A stretch of 31,970 bases of DNA from a virus (lineage: Duplodnaviria; Heunggongvirae; Uroviricota; Caudoviricetes). The stretch lies in the IMG/VR virus record IMGVR_UViG_2537562192_000019; one strand, given 5' to 3'. Position 1 is the first letter of the stretch, and every line of letters begins with the position of its first letter. Shown piece by piece: positions 2,785 to 8,596 of this stretch. The position numbers and the translations under genes are program-made. The notes under the pieces were generated by a model, which searched no databases, was not told the origin of the DNA, and saw only the letters and a list, made by a program, of their open reading frames with translations.

Positions 2785-2955
2785 TTTGATGCTATTGCAT
2801 TGATAATTCAGGAAAATTCTCTTTGTCTGTTTGTGTAAAATTTAGACTATCGTATGTTGATTATTGCGATGTTTCATCTTATCTTTTACACGTTTGCACC
2901 ATATAATCGACTTACTGTGTAACTGGAAAGTCATAACAGACTAAAAGAGGAAATG

Positions 2956-3129
2956 ATGAATATTGAAAACTTAAAAACAAAAGCAGAAGCAGATATTTCT
3001 GAATATATAACAAAAAAAATTATTGAACTTAAGAAAAAGACCGGGAAAGAAGTTACCAGTATTCAGTTTACCGCACGGGAAAAAATGACGGGTCTTGAAA
3101 GCTATGATGTCAAGATTAATTTAATCTGA
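2956..3129 (+). CDS. gnsB: GnsA/GnsB-family small protein (57 aa)
   Basis: Short ORF below the 60-aa cutoff of the supplied track: MNIENLKTKAEADISEYITKKIIELKKKTGKEVTSIQFTAREKMTGLESYDVKINLI. AAAGAGG Shine-Dalgarno 6 nt upstream of tandem ATGs at 2953 and 2956; followed by a terminator. Confidence 0.75.
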   Translation: MNIENLKTKAEADISEYITKKIIELKKKTGKEVTSIQFTAREKMTGLESYDVKINLI

Positions 3130-3178: not shown

Positions 3179-3280
3179 GTTATATTTGAATGGTTCCGAA
3201 TATCTAAATCACAATTGTTGATGGTTTTTATTAAACCAATGCAGTCCGGCTCAGGAGTGAGAGAAGCCGGACGTTATGGT

Positions 3281-3706
3281 TTAGCGTGGTAAGATCTGTG
3301 TAGTTTTCTGGATGCTTTCAGTAAATAGTAATGAATTATCAAAGGTATAGTAATATCTTTTTTGTTCGTGGATATTTGTAACCCACCGAAAAACTCCTGC
3401 TTTAGCAAGGTTTCTTCTGTATTCCTGAAATGTGATCTCTCTGGATTTCAGCTTATTAGAGGTCGTTTCTATAAGATGCCTATCCTTTGAAAATTTGACA
3501 GACACAATGTTTTTTAGGCCCTTTAATAACACTGTATTATCATTTTTTAATACAATATGAACATTCTCTGTGGCTAAATAGTAAATGTAATGTGAGACAT
3601 TGTGACGTTTTAGCTCAGAATAAAACCATTGATAGTTTAAATCGTTTCGAACTTTATCAAATATTTGTTTAAAAATGACTACCTGATCCATAGATAAACC
3701 TTCCAT
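3281..3706 (-). CDS. ydfO: DUF1398-family protein (YdfO-like), 141 aa
   Basis: Minus-strand ORF, AT-rich codon usage unlike the flanking phage structural genes (moron-like). Lies downstream of, and is probably co-transcribed with, the RHH-like gene at 3749..3982. Family assignment is from memory of K-12 Qin gene order. Confidence 0.65.
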
Positions 3707-3748
3707 GTGATATGAGGGGGCGTAGTCTGCACGATTATCTAAATTGCT

Positions 3749-3982
3749 TCAATCTGGTCTGACCTGTTTTCTGAGCAATTCAGTAATGTCACTCTTTTCT
3801 TTGTTTGCTTCAGAAGAAACTCTTTTTTCTGAGCACAGTCTCCGGCGGCAGGCTTCAATGACCCAGGCTGAGAAATTCCCGGACCCTTTTTGCTCAAGAG
3901 CGATGTTAATTTGTTCAATCATTTGGTTAGGAAAGCGGATGTTGCGGGTTGTTGTTCTGCGGGTTCTGTTCTTCGTTGACAT
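3749..3982 (-). CDS. Small basic protein with predicted ribbon-helix-helix-like DNA-binding region (77 aa); possibly YnfO/YlcI-like
   Basis: Minus-strand ORF MSTKNRTRRTTTRNIRFPNQMIEQINIALEQKGSGNFSAWVIEACRRRL... has a basic N-terminus, then a short beta-strand-like segment (IRFPNQM) followed by two helices, consistent with the RHH/Arc-MetJ pattern. Located just upstream of cos. Confidence 0.55.
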   Translation of the reverse strand: MSTKNRTRRTTTRNIRFPNQMIEQINIALEQKGSGNFSAWVIEACRRRLCSEKRVSSEANKEKSDITELLRKQVRPD

Positions 3983-4181
3983 GAGGTTGCCCCGTATTCA
4001 GTGTCGCTGATTTGTATTGTCTGAAGTTGTTTTTACGTTAAGTTGATGCGGATCAATTAATACGATATCTGCGTCATAATTGATTGTTTGACGTGGTTTG
4101 ATGGCGTAGATGCACGTTGTGACATGCAGATGATAATTATTATCATTTTGCGGGTCCTTTCCGGCGATCCGACAGGTTACG

Positions 4182-4193
4182 GGGCGGCGACCT
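4182..4193. other. cos: cosN cohesive-end site (GGGCGGCGACCT) of lambda-type DNA packaging; cosB lies between it and nu1
   Basis: Sequence ...CCGACAGGTTACG|GGGCGGCGACCTCGCGGGTTTTCGCTATTTATGAAAATTTTCCGGTTTAAGG... matches the joined right and left ends of phage lambda as I recall them; 177 nt upstream of the nu1 start. Confidence 0.9.
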
Positions 4194-4370: not shown

Positions 4371-4890
4371 ATGGAAGTCAACAAAAAGCAGCTGGCTGAC
4401 ATTTTCGGTGCGAGTATCCGTACCATTCAGAACTGGCAGGAACAGGGAATGCCCGTTCTGCGAGGCGGTGGCAAGGGTAATGAGGTGCTTTATGACTCTG
4501 CCGCCGTTATAAGATGGTATGCCGAAAGGGATGCTGAAATTGAGAACGAAAAGCTGCGCCGGGAAGTTGAAGAACTGCGGCAGGCCAGCGAGACAGATCT
4601 CCAGCCAGGGACTATTGAGTACGAACGCCATCGACTTACGCGTGCGCAGGCCGACGCACAGGAACTGAAGAATGCCAGAGACTCCGCTGAAGTGGTGGAA
4701 ACCGCATTCTGTACTTTCGTGCTGTCGCGGATCGCAGGTGAAATTGCCAGTATTCTCGACGGGATCCCCCTGTCGGTGCAGCGGCGTTTTCCGGAACTGG
4801 AAAACCGACATGTTGATTTCCTGAAACGGGATATCATCAAAGCCATGAACAAAGCAGCCGCGCTGGATGAACTGATACCGGGGTTGCTGA

Positions 4891-4916
<26 letters not shown>
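4371..4916 (+). CDS. nu1: Terminase small subunit gpNu1 (181 aa)
   Basis: MEVNKKQLADIFGASIRTIQNWQEQGMPVLRGGGKGNEVLYD... essentially the lambda Nu1 sequence, with its N-terminal winged-HTH region; downstream of cos. Confidence 0.95.

Positions 4917-8596
<3,680 letters not shown>

Follow-up and report, generated by a model that had tools for sequence, protein, structure and literature searches.

The genes ynfO and ydfO lie next to each other on the minus strand of IMG/VR record IMGVR_UViG_2537562192_000019, a 31,970-nucleotide sequence of a virus of the Caudoviricetes that we refer to as the window. A first-pass annotation of this DNA had likened the two genes, described as a small ribbon-helix-helix (RHH)-like DNA-binding protein followed by a DUF1398 protein, to an antitoxin-toxin or repressor-effector cassette. 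Our analysis leads to a different conclusion, to which we assign a probability of about 0.65: ynfO and ydfO are accessory genes that can be separated from each other, both located at the cos-proximal end of the gap between the lysis genes and cos in lambdoid phages, and they do not form an obligate pair. Linkage between the genes fails in both directions, and the module interpretation is not supported. Based on sequence alignment, their adjacency is best read as a lambdap79-less allele of the lambda right end in which 613 bp have been replaced by 54 bp.

Linkage of ynfO and ydfO

Searches of phage records matched YnfO in 152 cases and YdfO in 43, and no DUF1398 match was found in any of 66 Shiga toxin (Stx)-converting phage records. 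In a Stx2a phage the homologue of ynfO stands alone, in reverse orientation, beside an HNH/terminase module of a different type. Similarly, a second YnfO subfamily, with approximately 40% identity, occurs across the Enterobacterales in islands that resemble phage-inducible chromosomal islands (PICIs), where it is again solitary and reversed and lies between alpA and the primase operon. In the other direction, approximately 30 DUF1398 loci (30-49% identity) had neither a YnfO gene within 6 kb nor any other conserved neighbour. These YnfO-less loci include the ycgX type of Escherichia, Shigella and Citrobacter and others in Klebsiella, Kluyvera, Raoultella, Pseudocitrobacter and Salmonella diarizonae. 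For the divergent DUF1398 genes no conserved partner was found; their neighbours vary and include icd-linked islands, the bluR/bluF region and DinI-like genes.

Origin of the adjacency

Two blocks of the window align to the right end of lambda, 3262-3765 to lambda 47023-47527 with 84% identity and 3820-4181 to lambda 48141-48502 with 95% identity, and a short Qin-type junction segment stands in the window for the lambda DNA between them (Table 1). The 613-bp lambda piece holds the plus-strand gene lambdap79, a homologue of ybcW, together with the lambda-type tail of ynfO. The same three-gene layout is found in DLP12-type loci (ylcI-ybcW-ybcV), where ybcW lies between the other two genes on the opposite strand. 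In lambda and DLP12 the homologous DUF1398 protein shares 79% amino acid identity with YdfO and its gene occupies the same place by cos, with the same PdhR-box upstream region; these loci differ from the window in the opposite-strand lambdap79/ybcW gene and in the tail of YnfO.

The YnfO of the window is accordingly composite. The conserved core spans residues 1-54, the junction segment supplies residues 55-72, and the final five codons and the stop codon sit in DNA whose lambda counterpart lies upstream of the DUF1398 gene. The replacement of 613 bp by 54 bp would have fused a new tail onto YnfO, and any read-through from ynfO into ydfO would be secondary to that deletion. Of 5426 complete Escherichia coli genomes, 2176 (40%) carry the fused junction, including K-12 MG1655, to which the 171-bp junction is 100% identical, and 1406 carry the lambda-type segment.

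According to a 2026 preprint, escapers of the Vulcan NADase defence obtained with lambda-vir all delete lambdap79, which activates Vulcan, and recombination with Qin was held responsible for the deletions (bioRxiv 10.64898/2026.09.04.749371). Activation of Vulcan by lambdap79 is thus a plausible selective reason for a lambdap79-less allele, both alleles being common in E. coli. Furthermore, breaks at cos stimulate recombination on the ynfO side of cos (PMC3945230), which fits the near-identity of the block formed by cos and the ynfO core among phages. A 14-nt direct repeat, CTGTTTTCTGAGCA at 3764..3777 and CTTTTTTCTGAGCA at 3822..3835, flanks the junction segment and could be microhomology from the rearrangement, or chance.

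Locus and gene context

Both minus-strand open reading frames (ORFs) of the first-pass annotation are present, at 3749..3982 (77 aa) and at 3281..3706 (141 aa counted from the first ATG), and they do run antisense to the late genes as it had described. Over 1.1 kb the sequence has 100% identity to E. coli chromosomes in which RefSeq calls the genes ydfO and ynfO, and the setting of the pair is a Qin-type lambdoid prophage. The arrangement is the same as that of ynfO/ydfO in the Qin prophage of K-12; in contrast to K-12 Qin, the prophage in the window has kept, downstream of nohA, an entire lambda-like block of morphogenesis genes, with a frameshifted gene for the terminase large subunit. The two genes are already known as annotated, uncharacterised members of the K-12 y-ome, and the 2024 y-ome paper gives both as uncharacterised. 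The earlier statement that neither protein has a defined function agrees with that paper, and the lone phenotype in the literature is a gene-name mix-up (see below).

Table 1. Features of the ynfO-ydfO region, with coordinates in the window.
Feature	Position	Strand	Remarks
Strong hairpin, candidate bidirectional terminator	3244..3272	.	just past the ydfO stop; -21.9 kcal/mol, z=-5.6, 0/200 shuffles
ydfO coding sequence	3281..3691	-	136 aa; alternative upstream ATG at 3706 gives 141 aa; DUF1398
-10-like hexamer GATAAT, 5/6	3734..3739	-	read from sequence in the 42-bp ynfO-ydfO spacer; candidate ydfO promoter
ynfO coding sequence	3749..3982	-	77 aa; YlcI/YnfO family (DUF3950)
PdhR-box-like palindrome ATCTGGTCTGACCTGTT	3752..3768	.	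overlaps the last ynfO codons; ~65 nt upstream of the ydfO ATG
Qin-type junction segment, 54 bp	3766..3819	.	replaces lambda 47528-48140 (613 bp); encodes ynfO codons 55-72
ynfO conserved core, codons 1-54	3821..3982	-	~95% DNA identity to lambda 48141-48303; continuous with the cos region
Inverted repeat ATCAATTAATACG / CGTCATAATTGAT	4052..4084	.	70-100 nt upstream of the ynfO ATG; conserved in lambda
cosN 12-nt cohesive-end sequence GGGCGGCGACCT	4182..4193	+	200 bp upstream of the ynfO ATG

The pair is flanked on one side by rrrQ, rzpQ, cspI, ymcF, ynfR, ynfN and gnsB and on the other by nohA (Nu1) and the terminase gene; ynfO and nohA/Nu1 (4371..4916) are divergent, with the cos region between them. 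The lysis genes are not the immediate neighbours of the pair, since five plus-strand cargo genes (cspI, ymcF, ynfR, ynfN and gnsB) intervene. The description of the pair as AT-rich and moron-like suits ydfO, with a GC content of 31.6%, and not ynfO, which at 44% is to be compared with 56% for the structural genes.

The neighbour gnsB (2953..3129, plus strand) is the sole gene of the gap that is labelled as a toxin-antitoxin family member (PF08178, GnsAB_toxin). It is convergent with ydfO, and the strong hairpin between the two genes is common to both. The terminase large-subunit ORF (4891..6858) has an aberrant C-terminus, and the identical locus is tagged 'frameshifted' in RefSeq; the prophage, which otherwise looks complete and lambda-like, is therefore probably packaging-defective.

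YnfO is a conserved protein with a likely RHH fold

The 77-aa ORF matches Pfam DUF3950 (PF13132; E=2.7e-21, 75.6 bits, cutoff 25) and NCBIfam YlcI_YnfO_N (NF041551; 36.6 bits, cutoff 30). Nine residues are invariant in 27 diverse members of the family, R16, F17, P18, N36, F37, S38, W40, V41 and C45, and the family signature IRFP...NFSxWV appears in the YnfO of the window as an IRFP...NFSAWV core. Comparison of codons 1-50 with the Stx-phage homologue gave a dN/dS of 0.10 (dS 0.74, dN 0.07), indicating purifying selection and thus a real gene. Additionally, YnfO homologues carry good Shine-Dalgarno sequences.

The YnfO core is 98% identical in lambda over 54 aa. The lambda reference, NC_001416, has no coding sequence for this 64-aa homologue, which is found at complement(48109..48303), 200 bp from cos. 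Lambda, the best-studied phage, carries next to cos a conserved gene under purifying selection that is mostly unannotated and whose product is probably DNA-binding.

The layout predicted for YnfO consists of a basic N-terminal arm, a short strand (RNIRF), a helix at residues 19-32, a G-x-G-N turn, a second helix at 34-53 and a variable tail. Structure prediction, proposed with the first-pass annotation as a check on the RHH assignment, gave a partial answer: the AlphaFold2 (AF2) model shows an extended basic N-terminus and RHH-like helices at 19-32 and 34-53 joined by the turn G33-S-G-N36 (pLDDT 86-89), and the strand is missing from the monomer by DSSP. All 13 PDB matches listed by Foldseek are RHH or RHH-like (Arc, ParD2, Reg576 and a plant TCP domain), at non-significant E values of 6-10, and the RHH antitoxins ParD2, MazE6/7 and KacA are among the structural neighbours of the model. 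In hhalign comparisons, YnfO 9-33 aligned in register with Arc 6-30 (E=0.01, probability ~5%), and both helices aligned, also in register, to a small RHH profile made of 8 sequences (E=0.0075, probability ~5%). YnfO was not matched by the RHH families of Pfam at E<=10, a PDB sequence search with YnfO returned no match, and BLASTP of YnfO against Arc produced no alignment. The RHH label is thus made plausible by the AF2 helices, the Foldseek neighbours and the in-register Arc alignment, with every score non-significant. Each of these lines of evidence is weak, but they agree with one another, and we consider an RHH fold likely.

The ability of YnfO to bind DNA is inferred from this fold. YnfO would be a small protein of the Arc/Mnt/CopG kind that most likely dimerises and binds DNA through the RNIRF strand and the basic arm, and it may act as a transcriptional regulator. 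The likeness to P22 Arc and Mnt extends to small size, a basic N-terminal arm and the strand-helix-helix pattern predicted for YnfO; unlike these repressors, YnfO has no significant sequence or fold score, no nearby antirepressor gene and no identified operator. P22 Arc and Mnt are encoded in the late gene region (immI), and ynfO likewise lies in the late region.

YdfO and its control region

DUF1398 (PF07166, YdfO/YbcV/YcgX) matches the 141-aa ORF over the entire profile (1-119/119) with E=1.7e-46 and 157.5 bits (cutoff 22), which confirms the family given to the second gene in the first-pass annotation. YdfO is identical at 140 of 141 residues to PDB 2HH8, an NMR structure titled 'hypothetical protein ydfO'. 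The true start of ydfO is likely the ATG at 3691, giving 136 aa, because RefSeq starts the gene there, GGAAGG precedes it by 7 nt and the alignments of divergent homologues begin at this Met. YdfO also had a weak match to parafibromin (E=0.014), which did not recur when the family profile was used and was judged to be chance. The lambda homologue, lambdap78 (DUF1398; 47042..47575 in NC_001416), is labelled 'head protein' and drawn approximately 117 nt longer than homology supports.

The 74 bp upstream of the ydfO start are homologous to the upstream region of the lambda DUF1398 gene, where the PdhR-box-like palindrome is also kept (window 3756 corresponds to lambda 47518). The sequence ATCTGGTCTGACCTGTT is a reported PdhR site from genomic SELEX, located in K-12 Qin at ynfO/ydfO; a similar box lies between ybcV and ybcW of DLP12, and ybcV mRNA is down 10-fold in a pdhR mutant (PMC7660256). 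The candidate ydfO promoter in the spacer has no good -35 element, and its hexamer was not called by a strict sigma-70 scan. From the arrangement of this region, ydfO very probably has its own transcription start. Since no terminator is predicted in the spacer, transcription of this allele may also run on from ynfO into ydfO, or the two genes may be co-transcribed, and the transcripts of both would end at the hairpin downstream of ydfO.

Expression of ydfO is induced by ionic liquid, 12-fold on arrays and 116-fold by quantitative PCR (PMC4077768), and ydfO is among the genes differentially expressed upon DicC induction. In lambda, lambdap78 was non-essential by CRISPR interference (PMC10695390), and ybcV::Kan lambda recombinants were recovered as lysogens, all tested lambda-DLP12 recombinants being active (PMC3945230). 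We propose that YdfO is a DUF1398 alpha/beta protein encoded by an AT-rich, moron-like gene with its own upstream region (the PdhR box and the -10-like hexamer) and a downstream hairpin. The gene is dispensable for lambda growth and, judging from the K-12 data, the host probably controls its expression in the prophage. Being AT-rich, antisense to the late operon, dispensable and followed by a hairpin of its own, ydfO resembles the lambda morons bor and lom, and it lies in the Rz-to-cos gap as bor does. It differs from them in that its promoter is only predicted and it has no known phenotype.

One phenotype attributed to YdfO was rejected. Overexpression of YdfO was stated to confer resistance to oxidative stress (PMC4077768, citing Wang et al. 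2010), which we consider a YdfO/YfdO mix-up. The main text of Wang et al. 2010 does not mention ydfO and credits YfdK, YfdO and YfdS of prophage CPS-53 with the effect; the same slip appears in PMC9181523. The sole functional statement on YdfO in the literature is this confusion with YfdO, and both genes are still y-ome targets.

Alternative explanations

A type II toxin-antitoxin system, with YdfO as the toxin and YnfO as both its RHH antitoxin and an autorepressor, would account for the order of the genes, with a small RHH-like gene preceding a gene of ~140 aa across a 42-bp gap that holds no terminator. The YnfO model resembles the RHH antitoxins ParD2, MazE6/7 and KacA, and the toxin-family label of the neighbour gnsB suggests that the gap hosts such genes. 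We nevertheless regard this explanation as very unlikely. While the predicted YnfO core fold and the position of a small gene before a larger one are similar to those of systems with ParD, RHH-type MazE or KacA, YnfO lacks a conserved partner as well as a conserved C-terminal tail for partner binding, and DUF1398 is not among the known toxin families. Past residue 54 almost every subfamily of YnfO has a different tail, and in lambda the DNA of the last codons belongs to the DUF1398 upstream region; since the tail is where an RHH antitoxin would bind its toxin, this hypervariability argues against the toxin-antitoxin reading. Pairing is conserved in neither direction, an opposite-strand gene lies between the two in lambda and DLP12, and orphan chromosomal DUF1398 genes such as ycgX have no partner. 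Neither protein had a match in PADLOC, and the only above-threshold Pfam matches were DUF1398 and DUF3950, with no toxin or antitoxin family among them. Furthermore, YdfO was made in quantity for the NMR structure. The cassette proposed in the first-pass annotation, whether antitoxin-toxin or repressor-effector, is not supported, given an adjacency that is specific to one allele, partners that are found solo, the hypervariable tail and a ydfO gene that keeps its own control region. The candidacy of the locus as a toxin-antitoxin or defence system fails, and it has no priority on that ground. Still less credible, and already contradicted, is a role for YdfO in the virion. It is called 'head protein' in PHROG 413 and in RefSeq lambda and 'putative envelope protein' in older records; these labels are computational, and the gene is AT-rich, antisense to the late operon, non-essential in lambda, replaceable by a kanamycin cassette and found also outside prophage late regions.

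A repressor-effector operon confined to the Qin-type allele, with YnfO regulating itself and a co-transcribed ydfO, is somewhat easier to accommodate and is still unlikely in our estimate. The absence of a terminator between the genes would permit it, and 40% of complete E. coli genomes stably retain the arrangement. Inspection of the region upstream of ynfO for a promoter or operator, as the first-pass annotation had advised, yielded no minus-strand promoter in the strict sigma-70 scan; it did yield the inverted repeat of Table 1, for which an operator role is unsupported. This repeat is one of two inverted AKCAATT half-site pairs that flank ynfO, and the second, at 3740..3782 (half-sites at 3740 and 3774), brackets the candidate ydfO promoter and the PdhR box. 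AKCAATT was rejected as a YnfO operator because the argument is circular, the motif having been derived post hoc from these same sites. The half-sites are not enriched across the window (8 found against 5.8 expected), no pair of them occurs at the promoter of the lambda DUF1398 gene, and the motif is missing at the Stx2 phage locus, where the strand and helix A of YnfO are the same. Additionally, the ydfO upstream region is older than the fusion. A further explanation is that YnfO acts on the cos/packaging region, for example by silencing or protecting the cos-terminase junction in the lysogen, with ydfO as unrelated cargo. The position of ynfO is consistent with such a role, as it is always closest to and divergent from the packaging genes, both in lambda-type phages (Nu1) and in a Stx2 phage with a different HNH/terminase module, and the ynfO core and cos form one 95%-conserved block. 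Against this stand the PICI homologue, which lies beside the primase operon and not beside packaging genes, and the lack of an identified binding site here. Cosmid vectors are packaged with small cos fragments that do not contain ynfO, and ynfO is thus not needed for packaging. We judge a cos/packaging role improbable, less so only than the toxin-antitoxin and virion readings.

We therefore favour the interpretation of ynfO and ydfO as separable accessory genes. In this interpretation ynfO is a conserved solitary reverse gene that in lambda-like and Stx phages adjoins the packaging genes and in PICIs occupies the alpA-primase boundary. Several observations weigh against it. The pair is adjacent in 78 of 79 Qin-type viral loci; this count is not independent evidence because the copies are at least 96% identical and represent a single allele. 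The 42-bp spacer has no significant RNA structure or terminator (z=-0.66), the ydfO promoter is inferred only from a -10 hexamer read in the sequence, and for ynfO the strict sigma-70 scan found no promoter on the minus strand. The AF2 monomer of YnfO lacks any DSSP strand.

The YnfO family in phages and satellites

The most interesting remainder of the locus is probably the YnfO family itself, conserved, solitary, probably DNA-binding and situated at operon boundaries in lambdoid phages and PICI satellites. A broader and rather doubtful extension is that the family constitutes an undescribed class of lysogeny-state RHH regulators, encoded as lone genes against the long operons that surround them; in Gram-negative PICIs such a protein could be the missing repressor-type regulator, facing the primase operon across a spacer rich in operators. 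If this were true, YnfO-class regulators would stand at the packaging-gene boundary of lambda-like and Stx phages, the unannotated lambda gene 200 bp from cos included.

In PICIs the YnfO homologues face the primase operon across a spacer of ~210 bp that holds repeated palindromes, GTGTTTAAACAC in Dickeya (three copies, 23 bp apart) and GTGCACCCCCAC/GTGGGGGTACAC in Klebsiella. These palindromes vary from one PICI to another despite nearly identical YnfO strands and are thus probably bound by another protein. In the Klebsiella PICI records the YnfO-like gene is overlapped on the opposite strand by an annotated 324-aa coding sequence that is probably spurious.

Approximately 35 assemblies of unrelated taxa hold a fragment of the lambda right end, mostly of ~3.5 kb, for example those of Kitasatospora, Brevibacillus and Flavobacterium and a 3566-bp 'plasmid' of Arcanobacterium hippocoleae. 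These fragments are most likely sequencing-control DNA, which probably explains the mentions of ynfO, ylcI or DUF1398 in papers on Arcanobacterium and Metarhizium.
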